32,000 nucleotides of DNA from Calothrix sp. PCC 7103 (lineage in GTDB: Bacteria > Cyanobacteriota > Cyanobacteriia > Cyanobacteriales > Nostocaceae): NCBI GenBank assembly GCA_000331305.1, contig KB217483.1, forward strand, positions 1,071,937 through 1,103,936, given 5' to 3'. Positions 6,045 to 27,716 of the stretch are shown piece after piece. Position 1 is the first letter of the stretch, and the number at the start of each line of letters is the position of its first letter. A program made the translations under genes and the position numbers. Below the pieces are notes generated by a model. It did no database searches, was not told the DNA's origin, and was given only the letters and a program-made list of their open reading frames with translations.

Positions 6045-6201
6045 AAATGTCTTCACCCTTACTCCTTCCTTCTGCCCTCTGCCTACTGCCCTCTGCCAAG
6101 AACGTTTCCAAAGCTTTCACCAAAACTTGACAAGAACCTTATTGTGAGCCGAAAAGCGCCTTGTTTGTAAGCCGGGTGCTTCTTGATTGCAAGCCACAAC
6201 A
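6045..6201. repeat. Right arm of the long inverted repeat
   Basis: Reverse complement of 3349-3411 plus 3552-3645 (see left arm). It includes the TTG start at 6183 of the 967-aa ORF. Confidence 0.9.
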
Positions 6202-9086: not shown

Positions 9087-9104
9087 ATAAAATAAACTGT
9101 TTGA

Positions 9105-9132
9105 ACCCAGCTTTTTATGTAGCTGGGTTTTC
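9105..9132 (+). terminator. Rho-independent terminator candidate after the 967-aa gene
   Basis: ACCCAGCT (9105-9112), an 8-nt loop, AGCTGGGT (9121-9128), then TTTC. Confidence 0.55.
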
Positions 9133-9189
9133 ATATAATCCAACATTTAAAGCGAAAAAACATATACTAAAATTAAATGAGGTAATATT

Positions 9190-12084
9190 TTGTCATACGA
9201 TAACTTTGATGAATTAGAAGCAGCTTTTGAAATAGCCCAGACAAAATGGCAACAAGGCAATTTACTCGCAGCTTATGATGATTTGTCTAAAATTTTTACC
9301 TACCGACTTTTAAATTCTCAATTAATTGATGCAGATTTGAAGGTGATTCAATCCCTCGCTGACTTAGCTGGTATCTTAGGTGAATTTCAAGTTGCAGATG
9401 ACTTACTTTGTGGTGCAGTTGGTTTATACCAACAAGCAAACAGCGAACCCTTAACTGATTATGCAAACCTCAGACGCATTCAATTGTCTTTAGATAAAGG
9501 AGATTTATACCAAGCACAAAAATTATTGCAAGAAATGTCTCCACGCATTGGTGATATTAATGATATAGAGTTTTCTTCCTCCGGATTATTACAGTGGGAG
9601 AATAGTTGTATTTGGCGCCATGCAAATTCAAAAGATAGAACTGTATTATTTGCCGAATTATATCTGGCAATGGGACGACTATCAAGTGCATTAGGGCAAT
9701 ATAGTCAGGCATTAGAAGCCTTACAAAGAGGTATATTTCATGCTCAAGTGGAGACAACACCCGATTTAGCAAAGCAAACATTACTACCATTAAAGCTAGC
9801 AATTGCCGCAGCATATCTCGAAAAAGGCGATTTTGAGCAAGCCGACAATTACCTGTCACTGCTCAAAAAGCCAATAGATAGCTCACAACACCTGGAGTAT
9901 CAAATTCGTTGGCTGGAGCTATCGGGTAAACTCCATCTACTGTGGGGAAATTTGGGTGCAGGATTAAAACGATTTCAGGAAGTTCAAGAAAAATGTACAA
10001 TCATGCGCTCTCAACGGGCAGTTTTGCGCTCTAACCTCAATCTTGCCCATATTTTAATTCTCCTTAACCAAACAAGCACAGCTCAACAATATTTAGTAGA
10101 TACTCAAAACAATGCTTTAGCGATTGGCGATAAAGCTTTAGCAGCAAGGGCAGAATTGTTACTACAGCTTGCTGGCGCCCGTAGCCGTTCTTTGGTAGCA
10201 GAAAGTCCTGTAGGAATGTCAGTAGTGGATATGCGTAATAAACAAAAACACTACAAGCAAACAGTAGAAGAGCTATGGGAATCACCCAATTTCTCAACTC
10301 AATCCCCTAATTATTTAGCTTGGTTTGAAGACCGTGCCCTAGCCTTCCAATGGTATTTAAGTAATCTAGAGTTTAAAAATGCCAACGATTTTCTTCAAAA
10401 AATCAAAAAGGTTTTTAAGTCTACAGACTCCCAATTTATTCAAGTACAAATACAAATATTATCAGGCATATTTTCTTACTATCAAGGAACAGAACGTAAT
10501 GATATTACGAAAATTAACCAAGCCCATCAAATTTTAGAAGCAATTTGCCCCCAACTAGAGGAAATGTCTTTAAAACCCGAACTTTGGCAAGTACAGCGAG
10601 TATTAATTTGGTGTCGCACACGGTTAAATTATCCACTTTCCGAAATTGAAGCTTTAACAACATCAACAAATCTGCTACTTGAACAAATGACATCATCGCT
10701 AACACCAGAAGACCAAGTATTTTATTTGCTCAATAAATGGACAGCAGATGAGGAATACATTGCCGCACAAATAAACCAACTACAGCGCTTGCAACTAAAA
10801 CTCAGCAAGGCTATTTTTTTCCACCGTCCTTGGCTACAATGGCAACTGATACAAAAGCTAAATCCTTTAGTCGAGCATATTGATCGCTATAAAGATGCTT
10901 TAGCCAAGCGTACAATCAAAGGCGAACGCTCTCAAGTGCAACTTCTCCCACCAGGTTCACTTTTATTGCGTATCCTTACTCACCCCAAAAATCGAGTCAC
11001 CCTTTCATTTCTAATTTTACCCGATCGCGTTTTAGTAGTTAAAACTAGTCAATTTTTATTTGATTTTCATGTCATTCCCACTACTCGTTTAGCAGTACGT
11101 AATATCGTTCGACGCTGGTATCAAAACATCGACACTCTTAACGGTGGTCGAGATATGAACCTCGCTGCTAATAACGATTACGAGCAACAAATAACATCCG
11201 CAAATGAAGTCGGGCAACAAATAACCGATAATCTCGCGGACATTTTACAACTACCACAAATACTTGAGTGTATACCCAAACATATCCAAGCATTAACAAT
11301 AATACCTGATGACATCTTACACGGATTCCCCTTTGCCTGCATTACTTACAAAGGAAAGTATTTAATCAAACATTATGCCCTGGCGATCGCATATGAATCT
11401 AAAAATAAACCAATTCAACCTAAACGACCTATCCCCTTGAAAAAACAAGCACTTGTTATTGGTATATCCAATGGCAATAAACATTTTCGTCCCTTACCCG
11501 GAGTCAAAAGAGAATTACAGCATATTAATAAATGGTTAGACCAGCATCAAATTAAGCATTTGCAATTGGAAAATAATAATGCTCATAAAGCCGCTATTGT
11601 AGAAACTATATCCAAAGCAACACTGCTCCACATGGCTTGTCATGGAATTTTTGAGCCAAATCAACCCGATAGCTCAGGACTAGTACTAATTTCCGACTCA
11701 GGAGAACAGGAAGTTCTTAGTCTCAGGGAACTCTCCGAGATTGACTTAACAAAATTACGCCATGCAACTCTCTCCTCCTGTTGGTCTGCTGACCACTTTA
11801 TACTTCCCAGACGTTGGATTATTAGCTTACCAGAAACCCTCTGGCGAGCAGGGACTCAAAGTATTTTAGGTTCTCTGTGGGAGGTAGACGATAAAATAGC
11901 GATATCTTTTATGGCTAGATTTTATGATTACTTGGACAAGTTTCCACGAGATGAAGCCCTGCGTCGTACACAGCTAGATTGTCTTGAAGGTAGCTTACCG
12001 AATTGTGGTGCTGAAACATTTAATCCCAAATTTTGGGCTGGGTTTAATTTGTATGGAGACTACCGACCTTTGATGAAAATTTAA
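9190..12084 (+). CDS. TPR-like repeat protein with C-terminal CHAT (caspase-like) protease domain, 964 aa
   Basis: The C-terminus has the CHAT catalytic dyad context: LLHMACHGIF (His codon 11641-11643) and ATLSSCWSA (Cys codon 11779-11781). The helical-repeat N-terminal ~600 aa is typical of TPR-CHAT proteins. TTG start with GAGG 8 nt upstream. Confidence 0.85.
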   Translation: MSYDNFDELEAAFEIAQTKWQQGNLLAAYDDLSKIFTYRLLNSQLIDADLKVIQSLADLAGILGEFQVADDLLCGAVGLYQQANSEPLTDYANLRRIQLSLDKGDLYQAQKLLQEMSPRIGDINDIEFSSSGLLQWENSCIWRHANSKDRTVLFAELYLAMGRLSSALGQYSQALEALQRGIFHAQVETTPDLAKQTLLPLKLAIAAAYLEKGDFEQADNYLSLLKKPIDSSQHLEYQIRWLELSGKLHLLWGNLGAGLKRFQEVQEKCTIMRSQRAVLRSNLNLAHILILLNQTSTAQQYLVDTQNNALAIGDKALAARAELLLQLAGARSRSLVAESPVGMSVVDMRNKQKHYKQTVEELWESPNFSTQSPNYLAWFEDRALAFQWYLSNLEFKNANDFLQKIKKVFKSTDSQFIQVQIQILSGIFSYYQGTERNDITKINQAHQILEAICPQLEEMSLKPELWQVQRVLIWCRTRLNYPLSEIEALTTSTNLLLEQMTSSLTPEDQVFYLLNKWTADEEYIAAQINQLQRLQLKLSKAIFFHRPWLQWQLIQKLNPLVEHIDRYKDALAKRTIKGERSQVQLLPPGSLLLRILTHPKNRVTLSFLILPDRVLVVKTSQFLFDFHVIPTTRLAVRNIVRRWYQNIDTLNGGRDMNLAANNDYEQQITSANEVGQQITDNLADILQLPQILECIPKHIQALTIIPDDILHGFPFACITYKGKYLIKHYALAIAYESKNKPIQPKRPIPLKKQALVIGISNGNKHFRPLPGVKRELQHINKWLDQHQIKHLQLENNNAHKAAIVETISKATLLHMACHGIFEPNQPDSSGLVLISDSGEQEVLSLRELSEIDLTKLRHATLSSCWSADHFILPRRWIISLPETLWRAGTQSILGSLWEVDDKIAISFMARFYDYLDKFPRDEALRRTQLDCLEGSLPNCGAETFNPKFWAGFNLYGDYRPLMKI

Positions 12085-13225: not shown

Positions 13226-13606
13226 ATGAAAACATGGAAATTGGCACTAACAACTCTAGTGTTAGTAACTTCAACTTGTCTTCCCAAAGCGCAAGCAATT
13301 AGCTTATCAAAAACCGAAGTCAATCAATCTGAATCAACATTATTAGCATCATCTACTCAAATTGCGCTCAATGACACCTACTGGGGACCAGAGAGAGATT
13401 TTTCTATTCAGATGCCTGGTGCTGTACAAGAAAATCAATATAGGAAATTAATCTCATGGAGTGACACAAGCGAAACTGCCTACGTTATTCTCCACAGAGA
13501 CCTGCCAGTTGAAGCAGCTTATTTATCTGCTGACCAAATTCGTGAAACATTACAGACTTCAATGCGAGGAGAAATGACAACTACAGGAAAAATTGTGAAA
13601 TTGTGA
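13226..13606 (+). CDS. Small secreted protein (signal peptide)
   Basis: MKTWKLALTTLVLVTSTCLPKAQA|ISL is a Sec-type signal with an AxA site. AGGAGA lies upstream. The stop overlaps the next gene's GTG (GTGA). Confidence 0.55.
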   Translation: MKTWKLALTTLVLVTSTCLPKAQAISLSKTEVNQSESTLLASSTQIALNDTYWGPERDFSIQMPGAVQENQYRKLISWSDTSETAYVILHRDLPVEAAYLSADQIRETLQTSMRGEMTTTGKIVKL

Positions 13607-15066
13607 AAAATTACCAACATCTATTTCAAAATCAAGAAATACGTAGATTGTTGGATAATCATCTGTTAAATAAAGATATTTGGCATCAGGTTGATGATTT
13701 AGGATTAGAAGTATCCGAACATTTAAGTATATGGACTTTAAATTTTACAGAAATTCATCAAGAGCAGTTAAAAATTCTAGCGAAAGTTTATATTTTGATA
13801 AAATGTAAATTATTAAGAAGCGTAACTCTCAACGGACATTTGACAACGCTCAGAAAATTTTCTAATTTTTTGAGAGTAAAGAACATTGATAAACTAGAAG
13901 AAATTGATAATCTGGTTTTTGATAATTTGGATTCTTATTTATGTTCTCAAGGTTTATCAAAACCTACTATTTGTCAATACTACATAAATCTTTCCAGCTT
14001 TTTTGATACTTGTCGTTTAGAAGGATGGATAAATGTTAATACTTATTGGTTTCAGGGAAGAAAAACATCAATCAGTCTTAATAATGAGAGAATTGATTAT
14101 ATACCTGAAGAAGTTTGGAATCAGCTTGAAGAAAATCTTCACCTTTTACCAGAACAACTGCAAAGAATGGTTTTGATTATTAGAACAACAGGATTAAGAA
14201 TAGGAGAATTAGTAAATTTACCTTTAAATTGTCTTAGGAAACGGAATGAACAATGGCGACTACGACTAAAAGAAACCGAAAAATATGAAATCGAAGATGA
14301 ATTACCAATAAATATACCCGAATTAGTATTAGTAATTCAAGAACAACAAAACTATATTAAACAAACTTTTGGGTCAAGTTATAATCATCTATTTTGTACC
14401 CTTTATAAAGCAAGAGTTGTGAATAAAGATGAAAAATGCCACTTGAAAAAGCCTGTTGCAAAGGTTATGAAGTCAGTAAATTTTAACAGATGGTTAAATT
14501 GGTTAGCAAAAACAGCTCATATTTGCGACTCTTCAGGTATGGTGTGGAAATTTTCTTCACATCAATTTCGTAGGACAATCGCAACTATAATGACTAATGT
14601 CGGCATCCGTGACTTGATTATTCAAAAATATTTAAGGCATCGTTCTCCTGATATGCTTTCTTACTATAAGCATATTATGAAAGAAGTGCTAGAAAAAGAA
14701 TACGAAGAATTAATTAAAGAAAAAAAGTATGTTGATATTACAGGAAAAGTAGTGGATTCTTATAAACCAACAAATCCGATAACAACGCTACTCAGACACA
14801 AAATGTTTCAAATTACAACGCAATATGGTGAGTGTCATCGTCCGACATTAAAAAATCCTTGCCCGACAGTAAATGCTTGTTGGAGATGCAAGGAATGGCG
14901 TGTAAGTAATGAAGATTTAGAAGATTTAAAAGAAGATTTACAGCGAGTAGAAAATGAACTTCAAATTGCAGAAGCACTAGGAATGCTTAGACAACAACAA
15001 GGTTTAGAAAACGACCGAAATATTCTTCGTAAGTGTATTATAGCTTTAGGAAATAATTATGATTGA
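13603..15066 (+). CDS. Tyrosine recombinase (Tn554 TnpA-like), 487 aa
   Basis: Catalytic pattern RTTGLRIGEL ... SSHQFRRT ... YLRHRSPDMLSYY. Cys-rich tail CHRPTLKNPCPTVNACWRC. GTG start. Confidence 0.8.
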   Translation: MKNYQHLFQNQEIRRLLDNHLLNKDIWHQVDDLGLEVSEHLSIWTLNFTEIHQEQLKILAKVYILIKCKLLRSVTLNGHLTTLRKFSNFLRVKNIDKLEEIDNLVFDNLDSYLCSQGLSKPTICQYYINLSSFFDTCRLEGWINVNTYWFQGRKTSISLNNERIDYIPEEVWNQLEENLHLLPEQLQRMVLIIRTTGLRIGELVNLPLNCLRKRNEQWRLRLKETEKYEIEDELPINIPELVLVIQEQQNYIKQTFGSSYNHLFCTLYKARVVNKDEKCHLKKPVAKVMKSVNFNRWLNWLAKTAHICDSSGMVWKFSSHQFRRTIATIMTNVGIRDLIIQKYLRHRSPDMLSYYKHIMKEVLEKEYEELIKEKKYVDITGKVVDSYKPTNPITTLLRHKMFQITTQYGECHRPTLKNPCPTVNACWRCKEWRVSNEDLEDLKEDLQRVENELQIAEALGMLRQQQGLENDRNILRKCIIALGNNYD

Positions 15067-16857
15067 AATTAATTGGAATCAAGATTATAAAAAAGAATTT
15101 ATCTGCCCTAGATGCGATAAATATGGATTAAAGTTGCAAGGTACTAATAAACATGGTAAAAGACGGTTAAAATGTGACAATTGTCGAAGAGTAATTAGTA
15201 TCTGTTGTGATTTAAAGAAAAATAAAATATTTTTTGATTTCAAGACAAACACTACATGGATTTGGGGGCAAAAAGTCAATGAATTTATTTGTCCTACATG
15301 TGGAGATACAAATATATTTTTTTATGGAATGTGTAGTCTTACTGGGAAAAAACGATTTTATTGTAAAACGTGTAAAAAATATACTTATGATGCTATAGAG
15401 CTAGCACGTGGGAATGTGAGTAGAATTAGTCATAAAGATATAGCAATAAAAGCATTTAAATTTGAAGAAGATACGTGGGATTTAAGAAGTATTATTTCTA
15501 GTTGTGATAGTCGTAATATCGATTATATTTTATACTTTAATACTCTGAAACCGCAATGGTTAAAAATGTTAGTTAAAAAATATATTTATCACTTGTGTAA
15601 ATTAGAAATATCACCGAAAAAATTAACGCTAATCATATGGTTAGCTTTCGTTTTTTCTCTCGTTATTTGGTAGAAAAAAATATTGATAGTATCAAACAAA
15701 TAAATCGCAGCGTTGTTCTTGACTTTCTTAGTCACCAATCTACTAGCCAAGCTGTCAGACATAGATTAGGAACTTTAAAAGACTTTTTCTACATAGGAAC
15801 ATCCCAAGGATGGTTTAATTTTGACCAAGATATAATTCGAGATACTGATTACCCCAAATATAGATTAGGAAATCCAGATCCACTAGACGATACAGTTAGA
15901 GAACAAATAGAAAAAAACTTGCATATATTACCTGACTCAATTGCCCGAATGTGGATTATCACATTTTTTGCAGCATTACGTCCTTCAGAACTGGCTTTTT
16001 TAAAGAAAGATTGTTTAGTGCAAGATGGAGCTAGTTGGAAAATTGTTTGGAATAGAAAAAAGGGAAAAAATCAACATGAAGTTCCTGTGACACGAGTAAT
16101 TGCTAAAGTTATTCAAGAGCAGCAGTCATATATTAATAATTTATGGGGCAATGAATGGGAATACTTGTTCTGTCACTATCAAAATATATCTGAGACTGAC
16201 CCAAGCCAACCAAATTTAGAACCAGTAAAAAAAGTAATTCCTAAGAGTTGTAACTCATTTACAAAATCTATTCGTTGCTTAATAAAAGCTCTTAATATTC
16301 GAGATGAAAATAATCAACTAGCAATATTTAGCCATCGTTTAGTTCGCCCAACTCGTTTAACTCAACTTTTTGAACAAGGGCATGACCTTACTGTTGTGAG
16401 TGCATGGGCAGGTCATAAAAAATTAGCAACAACAATTCTTCATTATACAAAAGTTAGTTGTGACTTAATAGAGAAAGAGGCTGGACATATTCAAAAGGCA
16501 CTATTTAATAATGATGGTAAACCTTTATATTATGAGTCTATGCCTCAAACATTTTGGAAAAATCCTCGCACTCATGAGTTGAATTTATCAGGTGACCATA
16601 TTAACACTCCTATCTATGGTTATTGTGGACTTCCTTTAGACCAAAATTGTGATAAGTTTCGTGCCTGTTATACTTGTAGTTGTTTTGCTGCCACACTTGA
16701 AAAATTACCTCTGTACATTAAAACCCGCGATGAGCTTAGAGCCAAAGAGTCTAATGCTTTGGCAAATGGGCATGATGTATTAGTAGAACAATTTGGGCGA
16801 CAAGCTGCCCAATTAGATAAAATTATTGTTAGCTTGCAAGGAGGAAATTACTCATGA
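15059..16857 (+). CDS. Second tyrosine recombinase (Tn554 TnpB-like, ~600 aa) with N-terminal double zinc ribbon; split into two track ORFs by a frameshift at A6 (15617-15622)
   Basis: Zinc ribbons: CPRCDK...CDNCRR and CPTCGD...CKTCKK. Catalytic pattern ALRPSEL ... SHRLVRPTR ... GHKKLATTILHY. Reading ...CKLEISPKK then -1 to INANHMVSFRFFSRYL aligns colinearly with CKLLRSVTLNGHLTTLRKFSNFL of the upstream paralogue. Confidence 0.75.
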
Positions 16858-17708
16858 TACCTGACCAAAAAGAAGCTCGTATTAAAATCCTTACTGACAC
16901 TCAAGCAGCAAGAAAACAAGAGGCTTTAAAGAAAGTTGAGAACGCGATTGAGCGTCTACAAAAAATCGGTGCTAAAATCAATTTTCAAACTATAGCGAAA
17001 GAAGCTTCGGTTAGCGTTCCATATTTATATAAATATCCAGAATTAAAAGCGCATATAGCTCAATTGCGCTCCCAACAATCATCAATGCCATCAGAACCTT
17101 ATATACAACCACCTGTTACAGCGAAAGCTCACTCTCAAGTTGTAGAACGTTTAAAAAAACGTATCCATGAATTAGAAGCTGATTTGAGCGAGTTTAGACG
17201 TAAAAATGAAGCATTAGCAGGACAAGTTTATCGAGTACATTCTTTAATTGAACAAGTTGAACGTCAAAAAGAAATTATAGAAACCTTAGAAAATCGTTTA
17301 AAATCAGCCAATCAGCAAGTAACTGAAAGTAAAGTTATTCCTCTAAATAAAAAGTCAGTAGTTGTAAGTGAGCGTATATTAGCTGAACTGAATGAAATAG
17401 GAATAGAACTCAACAATAATTTAACCAAACTTATTGAAAATGCCACAGAATCGGATATTTTGGCAGCTATTGAATATTATAAATATGAGCAAGAACGAAC
17501 AAATATTCAAAATCCTGGTGGGTGGTTAGCTCGTGCAATTAAAGAGCGTTGGAAGAAACCAGATATACATCAAAACTTAAAGGCTGAAAAATTATCAAAA
17601 GAACCGGAACTATTTTCCAGCAACGCCACGCTATGCAATAGAAAGTTTGTATCTCTTGAAGAACTTGTAAATATTAGTAATATATTTGATAGTGAATCAG
17701 ATGACTGA
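16854..17708 (+). CDS. DUF6262/Tn554 TnpC-like HTH protein with long coiled-coil C-terminal extension (284 aa)
   Basis: The N-terminus KQEALKKVENAIERLQKIGAKINFQTIAKEASVSVPYLYKYPELKAHIAQLR matches the pattern I recall for DUF6262 proteins next to recombinase pairs. ATGA overlap with the upstream gene. C-terminal motif NPGGWLARAIKERW. Confidence 0.6.
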   Translation: MIPDQKEARIKILTDTQAARKQEALKKVENAIERLQKIGAKINFQTIAKEASVSVPYLYKYPELKAHIAQLRSQQSSMPSEPYIQPPVTAKAHSQVVERLKKRIHELEADLSEFRRKNEALAGQVYRVHSLIEQVERQKEIIETLENRLKSANQQVTESKVIPLNKKSVVVSERILAELNEIGIELNNNLTKLIENATESDILAAIEYYKYEQERTNIQNPGGWLARAIKERWKKPDIHQNLKAEKLSKEPELFSSNATLCNRKFVSLEELVNISNIFDSESDD

Positions 17709-19017
17709 CAAAATACCACCTCAAAATCTTGAAGCAGAAGAAAATATACTTGGTGGTTGCTTACTAGACCCCAATGCGATTGGCAGAATTGCTGATATTT
17801 TAACGCCAGAAGCATTTTATTTTTCTGTTCATCAACAAATTTACAAAGCAATATTAGAATTGTATAGTCACTCATTACCAACTGATTTATTAGCAGTTAC
17901 TTCTTGGCTAGCCGACAAGAATCTATTAACTAAAATTGGCGGTAAAAATCAACTAAGTAAATTAGTTGAAACAACAGTATCAGCCATAAATATAGACCAC
18001 ATAGCAAATATTGTTTTAGATAAATATCAGCGTCGGCAGCTAATTAGCATTGGTCATGAAATTGTTGAACTCGGCTATGATGAAACATTTCAAACTAAAC
18101 AAGTATTAGAGCGGTCAGAAAGCCGAATATTTAATTTAAATTCAAATCAACAAGATAAATTTAAACCACAAATAATAAGTGATTGCCTGCGTGAAGTATT
18201 TCAAGAGTTAAAACAAGGATATTCTCCAGGGTATCCAACTGGATTAAAAGATTTAGATGTCCTAATTGGAGGACTAAATAAACAGGATTTAATCGTAATT
18301 GCCGCAAGAGCATCAATGGGTAAAACTTGGTTAGGGTGCTATTTTACTAACTATATTGCTATGCAGCAACTACCTGTTGTTTTCTTCTCCGCCGAAATGT
18401 CTAAATTACAATTAACTAAAAGATTTTTAGCAATGCATTCTGGTATTGATTCTAGTAGGCTAATTCGTAATCAAATATATACTGACGAGATGGATAACTT
18501 AAAACAAGCTTTGGTTATTTTAAACCAACTACCCATTATCATTGATGATACACCTGCACTGTATCAAAATCCATTCAGGATATGTTCTGTTTTACGAAAA
18601 GTTAAGTCCGAACGAGGCAATTTAGGTTTAGTAGTTATGGATTATATCCAAAAACTTGGTGATAGGGCAGCAAGTAATAGAGCGCAATCAGTTGGTCAAT
18701 TCTCTGGCGCCTTTAAAGATATTGCTAAAGAATTTGATGTTCCATTTGTCGCTTTAGCTCAAATTAATAGAGGTGTTGAAAGTCAAACAAATAAACGCCC
18801 AACAATGGCGGATATTAAAGATTCTGGCGATATTGAACAAGATATGGATGTAGGATTACTTCTTTACCGAGACGAATATTATAACCCGAACACAATAGAC
18901 TTGGGATTAATGGAGATAAATGTCGCAAAAAATCGTAATGGCGCAACGGGTATTTGCAAAGTTAAATTTTCTGCTTCTATTGGAACGTTTTGTAATACTG
19001 TAGTTTCTCAAGGCTAA
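17686..19017 (+). CDS. dnaB: Replicative DNA helicase DnaB (probable start ATG 17701)
   Basis: NLEAEENILGGCLLDP N-terminal motif, Walker A AARASMGKTW, DYIQKL, ALAQINRGVE, KNRNGATG. The ATGACTGA overlap with the upstream stop has the same architecture as ATGATTGA at 15059. Confidence 0.9.
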   Translation: MIVNQMTDKIPPQNLEAEENILGGCLLDPNAIGRIADILTPEAFYFSVHQQIYKAILELYSHSLPTDLLAVTSWLADKNLLTKIGGKNQLSKLVETTVSAINIDHIANIVLDKYQRRQLISIGHEIVELGYDETFQTKQVLERSESRIFNLNSNQQDKFKPQIISDCLREVFQELKQGYSPGYPTGLKDLDVLIGGLNKQDLIVIAARASMGKTWLGCYFTNYIAMQQLPVVFFSAEMSKLQLTKRFLAMHSGIDSSRLIRNQIYTDEMDNLKQALVILNQLPIIIDDTPALYQNPFRICSVLRKVKSERGNLGLVVMDYIQKLGDRAASNRAQSVGQFSGAFKDIAKEFDVPFVALAQINRGVESQTNKRPTMADIKDSGDIEQDMDVGLLLYRDEYYNPNTIDLGLMEINVAKNRNGATGICKVKFSASIGTFCNTVVSQG

Positions 19018-19036
19018 CAAAGAATATTATTGTTGA

Positions 19037-19475
19037 AAGCATGTTGTATAAAACATAAACAACAACAAAACCCTTTCTCCAAGCATGTTGTATACATCGT
19101 GTATGGCATAATTATCGAACGGCAACAGTTGCCGTTCGATAATTATGCAATACACAACAGCTGAAAGCTATGTATTGTAGGTATTTCTACGTCATTAATA
19201 CTTTATACAACAAGTAGCAAGTTTTGGTTCTAATAAGCTGCTACCTCAAAAACTGCCCAGAATCTATTCGTCATGAGAAAGTTTACTTGTATGAACTTAT
19301 CTTTAAACAACGATATAAATTGTTGTTGTTGTTTTTGTTATTTAATATATTTTTGTTGTATTACATAACGATGAACCAATGTGGGAACTGTTGTATGTTA
19401 GTTTGCATAAAGTAGTATTTTGACTATATATTTATAAGAGTCGCAGCCCCCTTAACTCGTCTATACAATGCTGAC
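19037..19475. repeat. Iteron-like repeats plus long palindrome (candidate replication origin)
   Basis: AAGCATGTTGTATA x2 (19037-19050, 19081-19094). TGTTGTAT core also at 19354-19361 and 19389-19396, and inverted at 19205-19212. Perfect 43-nt palindrome at 19106-19148 (GCATAATTATCGAACGGCAAC A GTTGCCGTTCGATAATTATGC). The surrounding tracts are AT-rich. Confidence 0.5.
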
Positions 19476-19607
19476 AAAGCAGCACAAAAGTAAATTTATA
19501 TACTAAGCCAAAAAATAAAAATTCGATTTTTTCTCAATATAAATACTTAAATTGGATGTTTTTAGTTACTAAAATTACAGATTAATGTCTGTAGTAAATT
19601 TTAGAGC

Positions 19608-19795
19608 GGCGCCAAAACTCTTATCCACCCTTTGAATTTACACGCCCTGCGCGCAAGCTGATATATATATAGCAGTCCTAAATCATTTGTGAAACCCGTG
19701 CATTGTAGAGACGCGACATGTCGCGTCTCTACATTATTTGGGCATTTTTTACAATTCATCTAGGACTGCTATACCAGCTTGCCTCGCAAGGCGCC
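19608..19795. repeat. MITE-like nested hairpin element bounded by GGCGCC
   Basis: GGCGCC at 19608 and 19790. Outer arms 19654-19690 / 19751-19781. Central perfect 30-nt palindrome TGTAGAGACGCGACATGTCGCGTCTCTACA (19704-19733). Confidence 0.7.
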
Positions 19796-19822
19796 TGTCA
19801 ATTCAAGAACAAAGAAGTGAAA

Positions 19823-20992
19823 TTAGAAATTAGGCACCCGGATTTCTCGACTTTGCCCTGCGTAGTGTCGATAGATAATTTCTGGTGAATTACCTACCAG
19901 TTTCGCTACGTCCTTAACATCCATCCCATTTCTAAGCGCCATCGTGATAAATGTGTGCCTGGTTTGGTAAAGTTTCTTGTACTCAATACCATCTAGCTCT
20001 CCAATAACTGCTTTCCAACCTCTTGTATTCAGGTTGCGTGTATCTATCCAAGTTCCTTCGCGTGAAGGAAATACTTTTGTATCACTACAGGCGCCGCTTG
20101 GTTTAATCGACTTCAACAACGCACCCAACCGCTCATTGACAGGAAAAGCCCGTTTTTTCTGAGTTTTCAAACCTTTCTTACAAACTAGTCCAGACTCAGA
20201 AATTACCACAGCTTGCTCAAACCTCAGAAAACGAAAGTCATTGCTTATATGCTTCCACTGCAAAGCAACAGCTTCGGATGGTCTGCAACCTGTGATAAAT
20301 AAGAACTCAATAAAGGGAGCATAGTATTTGTAACGCGCGCTGTTTTGGAATCCTGTAATAATGCGGTCGCGTTCTTCAATGCTAAAGGGGTTAATATCGT
20401 TATCTTCCCTACTACCCTTTGGCAATTTGATGTCGCTAGCCATATTCTCAAAGGGATTTTCCTTGATTAACTCAGATTTAACAGCCCAGTCACAGCAAGC
20501 AGATAATTGCGTCAGCATTCGTTTCGATGCATCTGGACTTCTGTTTGCGTTTAACCAATTGCGAATTACTACTGCTTTGTCTAATGTATTGACTGGAAGA
20601 TGCACGCTAACACAGCGCGCGACTTTTTTATAATCTTTAGCTAAAGTACTTGGGGATAAACCTGGGCGCCTAAACTCAGTGTAACTTTCCCATAAATCAA
20701 CCAGCGATGGCGCCACTTCCTCCATAACTGGTGTAATTTTTGGTGTAACCTTTTCCACTAAAGGTTCTGGCTTATACTTCGCCAAAGTCGGGTCAAAATT
20801 GCCAGATAAAATATCTAGCTCAATTAGTTGACCCTTTGCCATCGCGACTTTGCGGTTGGCAACGGTATCTATAAACCCAGTAGAGAGATAGTACCGTTTG
20901 CCGCCAACACGAAATACAAGTTGCAGCCAGTCGTGCGAGTTTTTAATTTGGACGGTTCCTTTGGACGATTTAGATTCTTTGGGTTGAGACAT
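19823..20992 (-). CDS. int: Tyrosine-type site-specific integrase with Arm-DNA-binding N-terminal domain
   Basis: N-terminus VQIKNSHDWLQLVFRVGGKRYYLSTGFIDTVANRKVAMAKGQLIELDILSGNFDPTLAKYKP looks like a cyanobacterial DUF3596-type arm-binding domain. C-terminus TGCRPSEAVAL ... TRHTFIT ... GNSPEIIYRHY. Confidence 0.85.
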   Translation of the reverse strand: MSQPKESKSSKGTVQIKNSHDWLQLVFRVGGKRYYLSTGFIDTVANRKVAMAKGQLIELDILSGNFDPTLAKYKPEPLVEKVTPKITPVMEEVAPSLVDLWESYTEFRRPGLSPSTLAKDYKKVARCVSVHLPVNTLDKAVVIRNWLNANRSPDASKRMLTQLSACCDWAVKSELIKENPFENMASDIKLPKGSREDNDINPFSIEERDRIITGFQNSARYKYYAPFIEFLFITGCRPSEAVALQWKHISNDFRFLRFEQAVVISESGLVCKKGLKTQKKRAFPVNERLGALLKSIKPSGACSDTKVFPSREGTWIDTRNLNTRGWKAVIGELDGIEYKKLYQTRHTFITMALRNGMDVKDVAKLVGNSPEIIYRHYAGQSREIRVPNF

Positions 20993-21151: not shown

Positions 21152-21183
21152 AAAAAACCCCGGAAACTCTTGCTTCACGGGGC
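21152..21183 (-). terminator. Rho-independent terminator immediately 3' of the tRNA-Phe fragment
   Basis: The minus strand reads GCCCCGTGAAGCAAGAGTTTCCGGGGTTTTTTA (stem CCCCG/CGGGG followed by a T-run). Confidence 0.6.
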
Positions 21184-21195
21184 TTTCGACGTTTA

Positions 21196-21941: not shown

Positions 21942-22850
21942 ATGACGAAAAACCCTTTTGACCAGTTTTCAAAGCAATTCTTCAAAGAATGTCTATCACC
22001 ATTAGGTGAAGTAAAAATCAGCGAGGAAATACCCGGAGAGCCAAGATTTGTTGATATTTGGTTTATCCCATCAACTCAACCACCTGTGGAGGATTTACCA
22101 GATTTGGGTATTTTAACAAGGATTGCTGAAACTCCCTGTTTATTGGAACCGTTTCGTAAGCAACCAACAGAATGGGAAATTCGCAGTTGCTTGGGAAAAT
22201 TAGTTCACTTAGAAGCAGAACTGCGACGCGAAGCAAGACGAGATGAGGATACAGTATCTGAGGATGAACTGCCACGGTTATGGATTATTTCAACAACTTT
22301 TTCTGATGAACTGCTGAGTAAACTGCCTGCTCATAGAGACTCTTCTTGGCCAGAAGGTATTTATTTTGCAGGAGAAGTATTTTTAACTCGAGTTGTTGCT
22401 ATTGACAAATTACAGCGTATTCCCGAAACACTTTGGTTAAGAATTTTGGGTAAAGGCTTGACTCAGAAACAAGCTGTTGATGACGTGGTAGCTTTGCCGA
22501 GAGGTAATCCCAAACGTTCCAAGATTTTATCGCTACTTTACACTTGGAAGATTAACATGGAAATAAGCACAGAGATTAATATTGAAGATAAAGAAGAGTT
22601 ACTTATGAACTTATCACAAGCTTATTTGGAGTGGGAGCAAGAAACTGTAGAGCGCGGTAAGGAGATTGGCAAGGAGCAAGAGCGACGACAAGTTGTAGAA
22701 AACTTGCTCTTGTTTCGCTTTAGTTCGTTAGACCCCGAGCTTCAAGCAATTATTCCATCCATCCTAGCACTGTCTCCAACAGAATTTACTTCTATGTTAA
22801 TGCAATTGTCTCGTGAGGAATTAATTACCAGATTCAATACGCAAAATTAA
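21942..22850 (+). CDS. DUF4351-domain protein (Rpn/PD-(D/E)XK putative-transposase-like family common in cyanobacteria)
   Basis: N-terminus FDQFSKQFFKECL...PRFVDIWFIP. C-terminus QERRQVVENLLLFRFSSLDPELQAIIPSILALSPTEFTSMLMQL matches the DUF4351 pattern as I remember it. Confidence 0.6.
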   Translation: MTKNPFDQFSKQFFKECLSPLGEVKISEEIPGEPRFVDIWFIPSTQPPVEDLPDLGILTRIAETPCLLEPFRKQPTEWEIRSCLGKLVHLEAELRREARRDEDTVSEDELPRLWIISTTFSDELLSKLPAHRDSSWPEGIYFAGEVFLTRVVAIDKLQRIPETLWLRILGKGLTQKQAVDDVVALPRGNPKRSKILSLLYTWKINMEISTEINIEDKEELLMNLSQAYLEWEQETVERGKEIGKEQERRQVVENLLLFRFSSLDPELQAIIPSILALSPTEFTSMLMQLSREELITRFNTQN

Positions 22851-22938
22851 AAAACGCTATTTTTTGTGTTTAGGGTAAGTAAAAATACTCTTACCCTTAT
22901 TTTTTATAATTTTTCATTACACCTGAAAAATGAATATA

Positions 22939-23238
22939 GGAATAAGCACAGAGAATAATAATTAAGAAAAAGAAGAGTAAATAAATGAATTTATCGCAAG
23001 CTTATTTGGAGTGGGAGCAAGAAACCGTAGAGCGCGGTAGGGAGCATTCTTCGGCACCAAGTTGTAGAAAACTTGCTTGCCTGTCGCTTTGGTTCGCTAG
23101 ACTCAGAACTTCAAGCAATTATTCCATCCATCTTAGCGCTGTCTCCATCAGAATTTACTCCTATGTTAATGCAATTGTCTCGTGAGGAATTAATTACCAG
23201 ATTAGCTACGCAAAATTAAAAAATACTATTTTTTGTAA
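22939..23238 (+). pseudogene. Decayed duplicate of the 3' 310 bp of the preceding gene
   Basis: 22939-23238 aligns with 22559-22868, including the post-stop AAAATTAAAAAA..CTATTTTTTGT. An internal deletion and stop codons break the frame. Confidence 0.8.
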
Positions 23239-23244
23239 TAAAAA

Positions 23245-23348
23245 GGCGCCACTCACTTCGTTCAAATTGTTAAGGTCGATGGGGAGTATTATCTCCCCAT
23301 CGACCCTAACAATTAATAATTTTAAATTTGAGCGTAGCGAGTGGCGCC
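23245..23348. repeat. Imperfect ~104-bp hairpin element bounded by GGCGCC
   Basis: GGCGCCACTC...GTTAAGGTCGATGGGGAG tattat CTCCCCATCGACCCTAAC...GAGTGGCGCC. Confidence 0.7.
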
Positions 23349-23383
23349 GTCGTTATCAGGGTGCATCTACCATGACTGCCTGA

Positions 23384-23953
23384 CAGAAGTGTGTTAAACC
23401 CAAGGACAATGCTGAAAAGTTACTAGATAAGATTGCTGAATTTCTAGCTCAAAGGGGATTGAATGTTAAAGCCTCTAAAACTAAGTTAGTTTCCTCGACA
23501 GACGGTTTTGATTTCCTAGGTTGGCATTTTAAAGTGCAACGAAACGGAAAGTTTAGAAGTACTCCCTCAGAGGAAAATTTTAAAACATTCCGTAAGAAAG
23601 TAAAAACTATTGTTAACTGTTCTAACTATGGTGCTGAGACTAAAACTGAAAAGCTGGCTCCGATTGTACGAGGATGGAGAAACTATCATAAATACTGCAA
23701 AATGGATGGCTCACGGTATTCCTTATGGTTCTTAACCCACAGGACTTTTAAAGTCTTTCTTAAAGAAGGAAACATGAACCGATATCAAGCAGAACAGCTA
23801 GTAAAAAATGCTTTCCCGGCAATACCATATTCCGAAAATGCATTTATCAAAGTTAAAGGAGATATATCTCCCTTTGGCGGCGATGTAATTTATGCGCGAC
23901 GTGAAAGTCGTATGAGTAGGGAAACCTACGAACTGAATTGGTCAGCCGTCTGA
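23384..23953 (+). pseudogene. Group II intron reverse transcriptase/maturase fragment (intron A: RT domain 7 + X domain), 5'-truncated
   Basis: AEFLAQRGLNVKASKTKLVSSTDGFDFLGWHF; LAPIVRGWRNYHKYC; VKGDISPFGGDVIY. The frame is open from 23384, and the upstream part of the RT is missing. Confidence 0.8.
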
Positions 23954-24183
23954 CCTCAGAGAGCAGAAATCTGATTCCCACGTAAACAGGTCACTGACCT
24001 GGGGGCGCATCAAGGCTGGTAACGGTACTGATGAAGTGCAAGCCCACGAAAGCCACATGGTATAAATAATACTACGTCCGAAGTCACGGCGACCAAATGA
24101 TGGCAAGGGAAAGGTGTGTAGGGTGAAGGTAACTGAACCATTGTAAGCTTCGTCATAGTCGCATATGGGTGAAACCCACAGCC

Positions 24184-24242
24184 GAATGGCACTAAGAAAA
24201 GGCAGAGGGCAGATGGCAGAGGGCAGAAGGAGGGAGAAGTAA
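24184..24242. repeat. Left inverted arm of second four-helix-bundle cassette
   Basis: 24184-24233 is a perfect 50-nt reverse complement of 25099-25148. It shares the core GGCAGAGGGCAGWWGGCAGAGGGCAGAAGGARGGAG with the 3349/6045 arms. Confidence 0.85.
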
Positions 24243-24401
24243 CAAGGTAAAAGTGCTATCTATCTGAAGTTTTCATCGTCTCACTTAGACATACGATAAC
24301 GCTGGGCAGTTAAAAAAGTAACGATTTGAAAATTTAGCTATGGTATAAAAAGCCTTGCGTGTTAAATCAAATTAGATCAGAACACAGCAAGGCTAAATAA
24401 A

Positions 24402-24977
24402 ATGACTACTTCTACTGTGCCAAATCGTGTTGAAATACTCAAGCAAAAATTTAGGCAAAGTTTGGGTCTACCTTTCCAAGACATATTACCAGAGTCCACA
24501 ATTCAACAATCAATTGATGAATTATCAATCAAATATAAACGACGTTTATTTGACCCATTTGTGACACTATGGACATTTTTATTCTCCTTCGGAGACACTT
24601 CGTGAACACAGGTATTAGATGCTGATAAAAGTTGTCACAATGCAGTTTCAAGAGTAATCGCTTGGTTGTCGGGAGAAAATGTAGAGATACCTTCACCAGA
24701 TACAAGTGCGTATTGCCAAGCACGAAAAAGATTACCAGAAGAATTAGTGAAAAATCTGTTTTATAAAAGTGGAGAAAACTTTTCAGAAAAAATCGAAGCA
24801 TTATTTTTATGGTGTGGTCGCCATGTTAAAGTTATAGACTGTTCAACAGTATCAATGCCAGATACAAAAGAATTGCAACAAGCTTATCCTCAATCAACAA
24901 GCCAACTTGAAGGTTGTGGTTTTCCAATAGCCAAAATTTGTGTTATTTTTAGCCTCATAACTGGTGCTGCAAGCTGA
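24402..24977 (+). pseudogene. IS4-family transposase N-terminal fragment (frameshifted, 3'-truncated)
   Basis: Two track ORFs: ...FDPFVTLWTFL / ...CHNAVSRVIAWLSGENVEIPSPDTSAYCQARKRLPEELV...VKVIDCSTVSMPDT (first DDE Asp context). It ends abruptly where the four-helix-bundle fragment begins. Confidence 0.65.
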
Positions 24978-25062
24978 AAACCAACTATTTGCCTCTCCTC
25001 TTAAAGAAGTTGAAGAAATGCAAAGAATTATGGTTGCTAGCATTAACAAACTTAAAACCTAA
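24976..25062 (+). pseudogene. C-terminal 28 codons of a four-helix-bundle protein gene
   Basis: ENQLFASPLKEVEEMQRIMVASINKLKT* parallels NEVEEMQSILVATLNKLTAGVKK* of the intact copy at 5549-5914. Confidence 0.7.
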
Positions 25063-25090
25063 AACTTAAAACCTAAAACTTAAAACTTTT

Positions 25091-25148
25091 TACTTTCTCC
25101 TCCTTCTGCCCTCTGCCATCTGCCCTCTGCCTTTTCTTAGTGCCATTC
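25091..25148. repeat. Right inverted arm of second cassette
   Basis: See 24184-24242. Confidence 0.85.
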
Positions 25149-25329
25149 AACCCACAGCCTGTGGGATATGACTTGACAACACCCATTACCAAAAGGTAGG
25201 AGGACGGGTTTTAACATGTATATATTAAAACCAACTGCCAAAGTTTCTCCCGGAGTAAAGATGGCACCCGTAACATCGCAAGTTCAGCATACGGAACACG
25301 GTAAGCCCCAATTAGTCTAAGTAATACTT

Positions 25330-25530
25330 TGCCCAATATGTGGCGAACACATCTACTGCTCTGAACCACTACAACTGCACCACATTATTCCAGTTAATAA
25401 AGGTGGCACAGAGAAATTGGAAAATTTGACCTGGATGCACGAAGCCTGTCACAAAATAACACATACCAAGAAGTCCAAAAAGTCAGAATCCTCGCCAACA
25501 ATCGATGATTGGGTAGTTACTGAGGCTTGA
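25330..25530 (+). pseudogene. HNH endonuclease domain belonging to intron A RT
   Basis: CPICGEHIYCSEPLQLHHIIPVNKGGTEKLENLTWMHEACHKITH. Its stop overlaps the start of domain V. Confidence 0.75.
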
Positions 25531-25646
25531 GCCGGATGACGCGAAAGTATCAAGTCCGGTTCTTAGGGGAGGTGTAAAACTTGACAAAAATAATCCGTAA
25601 GGATGACGATAGTCTCGCTGATGGCAACATCAGCGCCTTACCCGAC
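25529..25646 (+). ncRNA. Group II intron A domain V (25529-25562) and domain VI-like 3' end
   Basis: GAGCCGGATGACGCGAAAGTATCAAGTCCGGTTC is a canonical 34-nt D5 (AGC triad, GAAA loop). The following segment parallels the D6 regions at 27073-27131 and ends ...CCCGAC. Confidence 0.75.
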
Positions 25647-25868
25647 TGGTCACAAAGAGAATCTAAACTCTATGATGGGATAACAGCCAGAAAGTTGAAA
25701 AAACAGAAACATGCTTGTGGATATTGTGGCATGAGATTTATGCCCGGTGAAGATATAAACCTACACCATATAGATGGAAACCACAGTAATTGGAAGGATA
25801 AGAACCTGGTAGTCGTACACCAATCTTGCCACCAACATTTCCACATGACGCATAGCCGAAAGACTTAG
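25647..25868 (+). pseudogene. Group II intron B RT C-terminal fragment with HNH domain
   Basis: WSQRESKLYDG...CGYCGMRFMPGEDINLHHIDGNHSNW...CHQHFH. It is the 3' part of track ORF 25581-25868, whose first 22 codons are intron A RNA. Confidence 0.75.
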
Positions 25869-25896
25869 ATTATCAGGAGCGTAGTGCTGGGAAACC

Positions 25897-27202
25897 GTGC
25901 GCCGTGGTACGCACTGATTGAATCGCCAACACAGTTGGCTGGAGTTCGGGGTACGAGACTCCAAGGCGAACAACTTACCTAGACCCGAAAGGGCGAGGGG
26001 ACAAGAGCATGTTCGTAAAGCGGAGAATAACAGAAAACGTGTATGTTATAGCTCTGCAACGCCTGAATGATATGGTTAAAGCGCTTACTGCCTGAACCCT
26101 AATATCCAGTGGTGGAACTGGCACATCCTTCGGTATCACGTTTGTACACCGATGTCCTCGGTAGCCATTAAATCAAGTTTCGTTAATGGTACACCCTGAC
26201 CGAGGAACGATGAGTAATGAACTCATTCAAGGATATGAGTAGGGAACCTAAGTCATTCTTTATACGTTCATCAGCGACGGAACATGGGATTGCCTAACGG
26301 ACGAGAGTCCTATGGTAACGGAGTTCTAATAGTAGTCGTGGGAGTAACGCCCCACCAGGGCAGACGGGAGAGCCGTCTACAGGGCGAAGTAGAACAGGTG
26401 AATTGATGTTTCTGTAAGGTACGCGAGATGCGAATAGCCAATAACAAAAGTAAGCATCAATACACTGGAGAGCGGAGTGACACGGAAACGGTGCGCCGTG
26501 GTACGCACAAAGAGAATCGCCAACTCAGTTGGCTAGAGTTCAAGGCAAATGACTCTAAGGCGAACAACTTACCTCGACTCGAAAGGGAAAGGGAACAAGA
26601 GCATGTTCGTAAAGCGGTAAGTAACAGAAGACGTGTATGTTACTGTCCCGCAATGCCTGAGCAATATGGTTAAAACTAAACTGTTTGAATCCTAATGTCC
26701 AGCGGTGGTTGTCACACCATTCGGTAGCACGTCTGTACACCGATTTTGCCAAGATATACGAGTACCGTTTCTCTCGTAAGTACGCCTTGCTTGGCAAGCA
26801 ATGAGCAGTGAACTCATTTAAGGACATAAGTGGGAAACCTAAGTTGCTCTATAACGTTCTCTAGCGACGGAACACGGGATTGCCTAAAGGACGAGAGTCC
26901 CAAGGTAACGGAGTCCTCATAGTAGTTCGAGGTGGGGAAAGCTCACTACATGGCGAAGGGGGACAGGTTGGTAACATTTTAAAGCGACAGGGTGCGAGAT
27001 GCACAAATCCTAAACCGAGTGAATGTTACTAACTGGAAAGCTGACTGAGATTGAAAAACTCACGGTCAGTTTGGAGGGGGGCTGTTGGAAAAGTGCCAAT
27101 AAAATGGTAACTCGCTGGCTGCCTACCCTACGTCATGCTCCGTTCGGAGGGGGGTGGTTGGAAAAGTGCCAGCAATGGTAACTCGCTGGCTACCTACCCT
27201 AC
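25897..27202 (+). mobile_element. ORF-less group II intron C1 (5' part 25897-26490, 3' part 27132-27202; ~665 nt), interrupted in its domain V by C2
   Basis: Starts GTGCGCCGTGGTACGCA. It has a D3-like GGTAACGGAGTTCTAATAGTAGTC. The D5 halves at 26470-26490 and 27132-27145 reconstitute a 35-nt D5. It ends ...CCCTAC. Confidence 0.8.
26491..27131 (+). mobile_element. ORF-less group II intron C2 (641 nt), apparently complete
   Basis: Starts GTGCGCCGTGGTACGCA and is homologous to C1 throughout. D5 is intact at 27038-27072. The D6-like segment ends ...CCCTAC at 27131. Confidence 0.8.
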
Positions 27203-27716
27203 TGCACGCTACGTTCCCAAGGAGAGGTGCCCCGGATAATACCGGGCATCGACTCCATCAAGAGCCTAAAAAATCAAACATTTCACAGCTTCAAGCTGCG
27301 TAGTTTTTCTGTAAATATACTTGTTTTACTCAGTTAATCTCATAACTGGGATAAAAAACTGCGTCCTTTTTAGTTCACAAACATTGTTCGCAAACAAACA
27401 TTTTTTGTCCAAAGTCCAAATTATTTAATTTACAGTAATTATATTTCAAGTACGGTAAACCGAACATCTTTTTATTTCTGAAGTGGCACCTGTTTTCACT
27501 TGACGAACACAATCACAAGGAAGACGGTAATTGAAAACATAAGTTAAAATTGCTACATATATTATGTATTCCAGTATTTACAAGAGCTTGGAGCAGCTAA
27601 ATTACATACAAAGCGCTGTGTTTCTGTGTATCATTGGTAATTGGCTATTTCAATATATAAAGCGTTATTCTCATCTGTCGAATGGCGCCTGTCGGAAAAT
27701 ACTGAATCGTTTTATA

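Follow-up and report, generated by a model that had tools for sequence, protein, structure and literature searches.

Organization of the nested introns

The stretch analyzed here is a 32,000-nucleotide (nt) part of contig KB217483.1 of Calothrix sp. PCC 7103 (the window, to which all positions below refer). Between about 23.2 and 27.26 kb, it contains the remains of four group II introns, denoted A, B, C1 and C2, all encoded on the + strand (Table 1). Three of these form a nest in which C2 interrupts domain V (D5), the catalytic hairpin, of C1, and C1 interrupts D5 of B. The 18-mer GTGCGCCGTGGTACGCAC, which is the shared 5' end of C1 and C2, is found in the window only at 25897 and 26491 (exact search; 0 occurrences expected by chance), and the 3' motif GGTAACTCGCTGGCTNCCTACCCTAC also occurs only twice, with ends at 27131 and 27202. 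Both introns begin with GUGCG and end with CCCUAC, that is, they have the GUGYG and AY boundaries of group II introns. When C2 (26491–27131) is excised in silico, C1 (665 nt) aligns with C2 (641 nt) from the first to the last base, D5 and domain VI (D6) included. The identity over this full-length alignment is ~73%, so the two introns are diverged relatives rather than products of a fresh duplication. In both cases, the insertion point follows the GAAA loop of the invaded (host) D5 by 2 nt, and at both levels (B/C1 and C1/C2), removal of the inner intron restores a D5 hairpin that is followed by D6.

An initial annotation of this DNA had proposed a three-deep nest, with each intron in D5 of the next one out, comprising two homologous introns without an open reading frame (ORF) that start alike and are inserted at the same distance from the tetraloop, and with a D6 segment after each D5 3' half. 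All these features are borne out by the boundaries, the excision alignment and the folds of the rejoined D5 halves, and the D6 segments end at 27131, 27202 and 27258.

Domain V at the junctions

The rejoined D5 of B (GAGCGUAGUGCUGGGAAACC joined to UGCACGCUACGUUC) is 34 nt long and adopts the canonical fold (−15.9 kcal/mol) with a lower helix of 9 base pairs (bp) including a U.G pair, an AC bulge and a GAAA loop. The length and the loop are as initially annotated, but the 8-bp lower helix and the CG bulge given there have to be replaced by the 9-bp helix and the canonical AC bulge. The 35-nt rejoined D5 of C1 (GAGCGGAGUGACACGGAAACG joined to GUCAUGCUCCGUUC) also has the canonical fold, with one extra bulged A that is present throughout the C1/C2 family. 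The uninterrupted D5 of C2 (27038–27072) shows the same 35-nt architecture, including the bulged A, and the Rfam model RF00029 matches the D5-D6 region of C2 (27036–27131) with 47.3 bits (gathering score 40); the split D5 of C1 and the intact one of C2 are thus as originally described. The rejoined D5-D6 of C1 aligns column for column with C2 and with 22 family members. The Rfam scan of the window detected neither B nor C1.

Pairing was scored on an alignment of 20 rejoined host D5s that includes B, with the canonical D5 structure as the reference. Standard pairs are found in 88.2% of the cells of this alignment, compared to 26–43% when the 3' partners are slid by 1–3 columns. In 10 of the 14 D5 pairs, changes are seen on both sides, and the observed covariation score was reached by none of 500 shuffles. 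A covariance model (R1) built solely from these 20 rejoined host D5s and run against the window with filters off retrieved, as its two best matches, both intact D5s verified with Rfam, at 25529–25562 (44.7 bits, E = 8.5e-12) and at 27038–27072 (25.2 bits, E = 1.5e-5). By these measures the rejoined halves behave as genuine domain V, which was the check that the initial annotation had called for. The R1 search of the window gave no further significant match. A weak D5-like hairpin at 21155–21185 on the minus strand (14.5 bits, E ~0.04) is probably an unrelated GC-rich hairpin.

Family copies and their insertion sites

One genome per species was scanned for exact matches to the 18-nt 5' end that C1 and C2 have in common. 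This yielded 75 loci, of which 17 are chance matches in GC-rich genomes and ~58 continue with family sequence. According to the record titles, the copies are mostly cyanobacterial and come from many genera; hosts are also found in Mycoavidus, Chloroflexi, a Rubrobacteraceae metagenome-assembled genome (MAG) and delta-proteobacterial MAGs. When C1, C2 and one metagenome locus are added to the scanned loci, 60 copies have at least 22 nt of 5' flank; these flanks were tested at fixed offsets for AGC at −19/−20 and GNRA at −6 to −3. A D5 5' half that is cut 2 nt past the loop precedes 54 of the 60 copies; the same test is passed by 0.12% of random positions and by none of the 17 chance matches to the 18-mer. 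The prediction that other copies would carry the same D5 flank therefore holds far beyond this locus. Among the six exceptions, five are visibly decayed D5 halves and the sixth is L029. At the 22 loci where both intron ends are present, the 3' flank provides the missing D5 strand, followed by D6.

The exceptional copy L029, from a Roseiflexaceae MAG, lies in an unrelated context outside any D5. Its exon-binding site 1 (EBS1), AUGUUC, is changed and perfectly matches its own flank, GAACAU. This copy either was retargeted naturally or is an outgroup.

The junction expected when a family member is inserted in another (GAYACGGAAACG followed by GTGCGCC) was also looked for in one metagenome scan, which returned a single further case. 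Such family-in-family nesting is rare. This locus (L076, contig Ga0209751_10221697) contains a family copy in a family-like D5 (AAGCCGGATGACACGGAAACG followed by GTGCGCC), with a transposase-like ORF just upstream of that D5.

Full-length members and host introns

The family copies come in two sizes, ~2,428 nt and ~665 nt. The long copies (L070 and others) contain a ~600-amino acid (aa) ORF with RVT_1, Intron_maturas2 and AI2M-like HNH domains (Pfam). The best PDB match of this intron-encoded protein (IEP) is LtrA of the Ll.LtrB intron, over the full length (E = 5e-115), so that the full-length relatives encode an IEP of the LtrA lineage, and C1 and C2 themselves have no ORF. The short copies, C1 included, retain domain IV up to the first ~11 codons of the ORF and then jump to ~10 nt before D5, and most of them share one domain IV deletion junction. 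Copies with the shared ORF-less junction, namely C1, L007, L039 and L057, are nevertheless found in four different host D5s, which argues for movement of ORF-less copies in trans. For both splicing and movement, C1 and C2 presumably relied on the protein that a full-length member supplied in trans. The initial view of D5 as the homing site of an ORF-less lineage is thus right with respect to the target, but the lineage is not ORF-less only because its full-length members encode an LtrA-like protein.

Evidence of recent movement comes from one Chamaesiphon MAG, in which four copies (L032, L044, L070 and L074) show 100% identity across 2,428 nt, whereas the 400 nt upstream are only 50–66% identical. 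Identical guests in diverged hosts imply independent recent insertion rather than simple hitch-hiking on a mobile host.

The host introns are diverse as well. With intron A bridged, the B ORF can be aligned with host IEPs over positions 1–235, at up to 62% identity. By their identity to the B IEP, the host proteins form at least two groups, one at 44–63% and one at 25–28%. The best match of a B-like host IEP is the Thermosynechococcus elongatus maturase-reverse transcriptase (RT) 6me0 (E = 1.7e-72), and the B protein itself resembles the TeI4h type (CL-like). Given that the family IEP is LtrA-like and the B-like host IEP matches 6me0, the LtrA-type family is invading introns of other classes.

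Target recognition

Every copy of the family has a domain I hairpin loop with the sequence NNUUUY, the EBS1, and in nearly all copies UUUY faces GAAA in the target. The stem of this hairpin differs between copies by compensatory changes, with CCAUUAA/UUAAUGG in C1 and UACGAG/CUCGUA in C2. In both C1 and C2, the domain I loop pairs with the 5' flank. The sequence CGTTTC of C2 (26766–26771), which had been put forward as a candidate EBS1 for GAAACG as intron-binding site 1 (IBS1), lies within the hairpin loop TACCGTTTCT (26763–26772), and the loop sequence ACCGUUUCU is complementary to GGAAACG of C1 and the GU across the insertion point over 9 continuous bp (7 bp plus delta). For C1, EBS1 AGUUUC (26176–26181) fits GAAACC of B except at position −1 (5 bp plus 2). 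Among 30 distinct copies, 20 pair at position −2, compared to 12.8 expected (permutation p ~0.001). The loop position, the 9-bp pairing and this covariation support the proposed EBS1/IBS1 pair. In introns of the IIA type, EBS1 functions together with delta, such that the nucleotides adjacent to EBS1 pair with target positions +1 and +2, and the EBS1 loop of the family fits this scheme. A candidate EBS2, NNNCAC, pairs 6/6 with positions −13 to −8 in C1 and 6/6 one position further upstream, −14 to −9, in C2.

These features suggest a mechanism in which the EBS1 loop, 5'-NNUUUY-3', would pair with the conserved GAAA tetraloop and the next two nucleotides, the delta nucleotides located 5' of EBS1 would pair with target positions +1 and +2, and the second loop, NNNCAC, would probably pair with the conserved GUG of the D5 5' strand. 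Such EBS1-guided retrohoming to the D5 tetraloop, although predicted, is well supported by the sequences.

The D5 of the family itself is nearly invariant (GAUACGGAAACG before and GUCAU after the insertion point) and mismatches the most common EBS1 of the family, ACUUUC, at −1 and −2. The EBS1 that matches the family D5 (GAAACG), CGUUUC, is carried by C2 alone, and the own D5 of C2 has been altered to UUGAAAAA, followed by C, through compensatory substitutions. This one example suggests that typical members might avoid self-invasion and that C2 could have been retargeted to the D5 of its own family.

Outer intron B, intron A and the surrounding genes

Table 1. Positions of the group II intron segments in the window. 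HNH, RVT_1 and GIIM are domain names; EBS and IBS, exon- and intron-binding sites.
Feature	Position	Strand	Evidence and details
B IEP remnant: end of RT domain and X/maturase domain	23198–23893	+	tblastn, Pfam (GIIM, RVT_1 C-terminus); degenerate upstream of ~23400
Intron A, unrelated decayed group II intron	23894–25646	+	Rfam RF00029, joining of the B ORF, NCBIfam IS4, Pfam HNH
B IEP, C-terminal HNH part including the stop codon	25647–25871	+	ORF joining, tblastn, Pfam
B D5 5' half GAGCGTAGTGCTGGGAAACC, ending 2 nt past the GAAA loop; IBS2/IBS1 target of C1	25877–25896	+	
C1 5' segment: domains I–IV and D5 5' half (26470–26490)	25897–26490	+	EBS1 loop 26172–26182 AUCAAGUUUCG; EBS2 candidate 26119–26124
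C2, complete innermost ORF-less intron, 641 nt	26491–27131	+	EBS1/delta 26764–26772 ACCGUUUCU; EBS2 candidate 26710–26715
C2 intact D5 and D6, ending CCCUAC	27038–27072 (D5); 27073–27131 (D6)	+	Rfam RF00029, model R1
C1 3' segment: D5 3' half 27132–27145 GTCATGCTCCGTTC and D6 27146–27202, ending CCCTAC	27132–27202	+	
B 3' segment: D5 3' half 27203–27216 TGCACGCTACGTTC and D6 27217–27258, ending GACUCCAU	27203–27258	+	

The extent of B was delineated by a tblastn comparison with an intact B-like IEP (L057, 514 aa), which matches the window only from aa 204 onward, at 23198–23914 and 25638–25847, with aa 204–450 as the part matched in the upstream IEP remnant. No match to aa 1–203 was found anywhere in the window, and no sequence of B domains I–III is present upstream in the window. 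The B ORF is split by intron A between ...GGDVIY and WSQRESKLYDG, precisely where the X/DNA-binding region gives way to the HNH domain. At the other end, the D6 of B is homologous to the D6 of the B-like hosts in L006, L009, L057 and L059 (...CGACTCTAC). There is no flanking gene that is interrupted by the B 3' end.

Of its own ORF, intron A keeps only an HNH remnant at 25330–25530 (Pfam), and it retains a D5-D6 at 25527–25646 (Rfam RF00029, 53.3 bits). Inverted repeats of 71 nt (24184–24254 and 25078–25148, 90% complementary) enclose 823 nt with a fragment of an IS4 transposase at 24402–24977 (NCBIfam); this segment could be what remains of an insertion sequence or, alternatively, a long stem of domain IV that has taken up an insert. 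A run of heptamer repeats (cttaaaac / ctaaaac) is located at 25050–25095 within A, beside one arm of the inverted repeats. A blastn search with the ends of A against all collected loci gave no match.

A local duplication of ~330 nt (22538–22867 and 22917–23236, 82–93% identity) adjoins the truncation point of B with its second copy. The duplication covers the 3' end of a 302-aa ORF (21942–22850), which has no Pfam or NCBIfam match, together with the sequence just downstream. Further upstream, the region 13603–20992 encodes three Phage_integrase family tyrosine recombinases (13603–15066, 15637–16857 and, on the minus strand, 19823–20992) along with a DUF6262 protein, a zinc-ribbon transposase-like protein and a DnaB-like helicase; from this gene content, it looks like an integrated element or island. 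Two adjacent ORFs of ~965 aa occupy 6183–12084, the second of which contains TPR and CHAT domains, whereas the first has no Pfam match.

Origin of the nest

The segment from ~23.2 to 27.26 kb is very probably a fossil pile of four group II introns in which C1 and C2 derive from a mobile family specialized on the D5 of other group II introns. Under this interpretation, C1 would have retrohomed, presumably by reverse splicing and target-primed reverse transcription, into the DNA encoding the D5 of B, between nt 20 and 21 of the 34-nt hairpin, and C2 would later have retrohomed into the equivalent position of C1's own D5, whereas the unrelated intron A sits in the protein-coding region of B. The nest can be read as the trace of homing events that followed one another amid decaying mobile elements, and C1 and C2 themselves might still be active at present. 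The insert splits the catalytic hairpin of its host and therefore an intact nest would have to be spliced inside-out, C2 before C1 and C1 before B. The inside-out order that was proposed initially stands as a logical necessity for an intact nest but not as a working pathway at this locus, where B has no 5' half.

Several observations weigh against this interpretation or at least limit it. The locus is at least partly dead: B is truncated at the 5' end, with domains I–III and the RT N-terminus gone, and because of this truncation cannot splice here, and A has a mutated 5' end, beginning with GCGCG instead of GUGCG. A tblastn search of the 32-kb window with the family IEP gave no match, that is, no LtrA-like IEP is encoded there. 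The Rfam models of domains I–IV do not match C1 or C2 even at E <= 10, so that any structural class of the RNA would have to be deduced from the protein of the full-length relatives. The coverage in blastn comparisons of C1 and C2 with plasmid group II introns is only partial (15–61%). With respect to target recognition, C1 mismatches its target at −1, pairing at positions −1, +1 and +2 exceeds that in permuted sets weakly or not at all (p = 0.10, 0.16 and 0.04), and the EBS2 candidate shows no significant covariation across 25 copies (permutation p = 0.09–0.23). Finally, in L002, L044, L015 and L043, the host D5 halves are mismatched across the insert (e.g., GAGCGTAG... on the left and ...GCCCAGTTC on the right), which suggests that recombination may have occurred between dispersed copies of the invader.

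Three other explanations have been considered. A plain head-to-tail tandem duplication of a ~600-nt repeat, with the D5-like flanks being coincidental, is what the 5' parts of C1 and C2 resemble when viewed in isolation, as direct repeats spaced by 594 nt. However, the D5 3' half and D6 of C1 come after C2 and not before it, the two copies are only ~73% identical, the flanks rejoin into D5 at both levels and 54 of 60 copies show this geometry of the junction. The layout and the flanks in other genomes refute a tandem duplication, and its probability is virtually nil. The recurrent geometry could also have arisen by hitch-hiking, if one ancient insertion in D5 had been followed by the spread of a composite twintron of host and passenger. 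Such composite mobility has been raised as a possibility for the T. elongatus twintrons (PMC2882425), and many of the hosts found here are indeed related cyanobacterial introns, but guests that are 100% identical reside in hosts that are 50–66% identical, the hosts come from several phyla and, by their IEPs, from at least two groups, and EBS1 covaries with flank position −2. Moreover, a host with a split D5 would not easily act as a ribozyme with the passenger aboard. We regard hitch-hiking as very improbable.

A functional role of the nest, for example, as a switch that ties host splicing and protein expression to a second maturase, would agree with the preservation of the D5 structure of C2 through compensatory changes and with the argument that insertion at a host site essential for splicing favors retention of the inner intron (PMC4649490). 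The truncation of B and the decay of A in the window, the location in a graveyard of mobile elements and the lack of any flanking gene interrupted by the 3' end of B speak against such a role and make it very improbable.

Extending D5 homing to the family as a whole, the LtrA-type lineage that is represented in Cyanobacteria, Chloroflexi, Actinobacteria and Proteobacteria might be a specialized parasite of group II introns that targets the DNA encoding D5, with the mismatch to its own D5 sparing it self-invasion and with C2 as a retargeted member whose own D5 is altered at precisely the positions concerned. We give this broader scenario about an even chance. If it is true, the homing site consists of the GNRA loop and the AGC strand, the most conserved sequence common to group II introns, and every invaded intron depends on the splicing of the invader.

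Comparison with known systems

In a full-text literature search, we found no bacterial lineage with D5 as a regular target, although one may have been described earlier. A precedent for an inner intron in domain V is the group II twintron in the chloroplast psbF gene of Euglena gracilis, which was reportedly described by Copertino and Hallick in 1991. Twintrons that require splicing of the inner intron before the outer one are classical in Euglena. The psbF twintron shares with the present nest, were it intact, the sequential, inner-first splicing, but its introns are degenerate, it is confined to one organellar locus, and it is not known to encode an RT or to belong to a D5-homing lineage, in contrast to the family analyzed here, which is bacterial, is spread over several phyla and includes autonomous members. 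The family protein matches LtrA over the full length, but Ll.LtrB homes into a relaxase gene whereas the present family homes into D5.

A bacterial parallel is provided by the T. elongatus twintrons, in which TeI3 (F3) introns are inserted in TeI4 (F1) introns at a non-catalytic site of domain IV, flanked by two start codons (Mohr et al., 2010; PMC2882425). As in the present case, ORF-less introns occupy one conserved site of mobile introns and use the protein of a relative in trans, and the inner copies are identical in diverged outer introns; the difference is that, in T. elongatus, host and guest both belong to IIB1/CL, whereas here an LtrA-like family invades the D5 of other classes. In the archaeon Methanosarcina acetivorans, introns have repeatedly homed into other introns in a site-specific manner, and the resulting nests comprise up to five of them; the targets are, as far as the account in PMC4424553 goes, intron ORF sequences and not domain V (Dai and Zimmerly, 2003, as cited there). 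A cyanobacterial group II twintron, Tr.e.I7/I8 of Trichodesmium erythraeum, has been shown to undergo sequential splicing in vivo (Pfreundt and Hess, 2015; PMC4649490), but its inner intron resides in domain I of the host and it is a single locus (PMC4649490). The insertion of C2 in its own paralogue C1 is reminiscent of the lycophyte mitochondrial twintron cox1i1149g2, an intron 'invading itself' (Zumkeller et al., 2020; PMC7049729); this one, however, belongs to a plant organelle, and its inner intron no longer splices and has been called a 'zombie' (PMC7049729).

Known homing sites of introns within introns are in non-catalytic regions. The family described here regularly targets a catalytic hairpin and thereby exploits, as a landing site that exists in many copies and travels horizontally, the very RNA element that is most conserved in group II introns. 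The invaded introns lose their D5 signature, as seen with B and C1, which were not detected with Rfam, and this implies a blind spot of surveys; one published pipeline indeed reports missing the outer introns of twintrons (PMC8919778). The family offers a natural system for the study of parasite-on-parasite dynamics, obligate ordered splicing and discrimination of self and non-self through EBS1/D5 mismatches, and a naturally retargeted LtrA-type intron with a known target of 13–20 nt. Twintrons as such are already known, and the sequences analyzed here point to a group II lineage that specializes in forming them. Bacterial twintrons have been called extremely rare (PMC4649490), whereas a single exact-word scan with one genome per species retrieved ~58 twintrons of one geometry.

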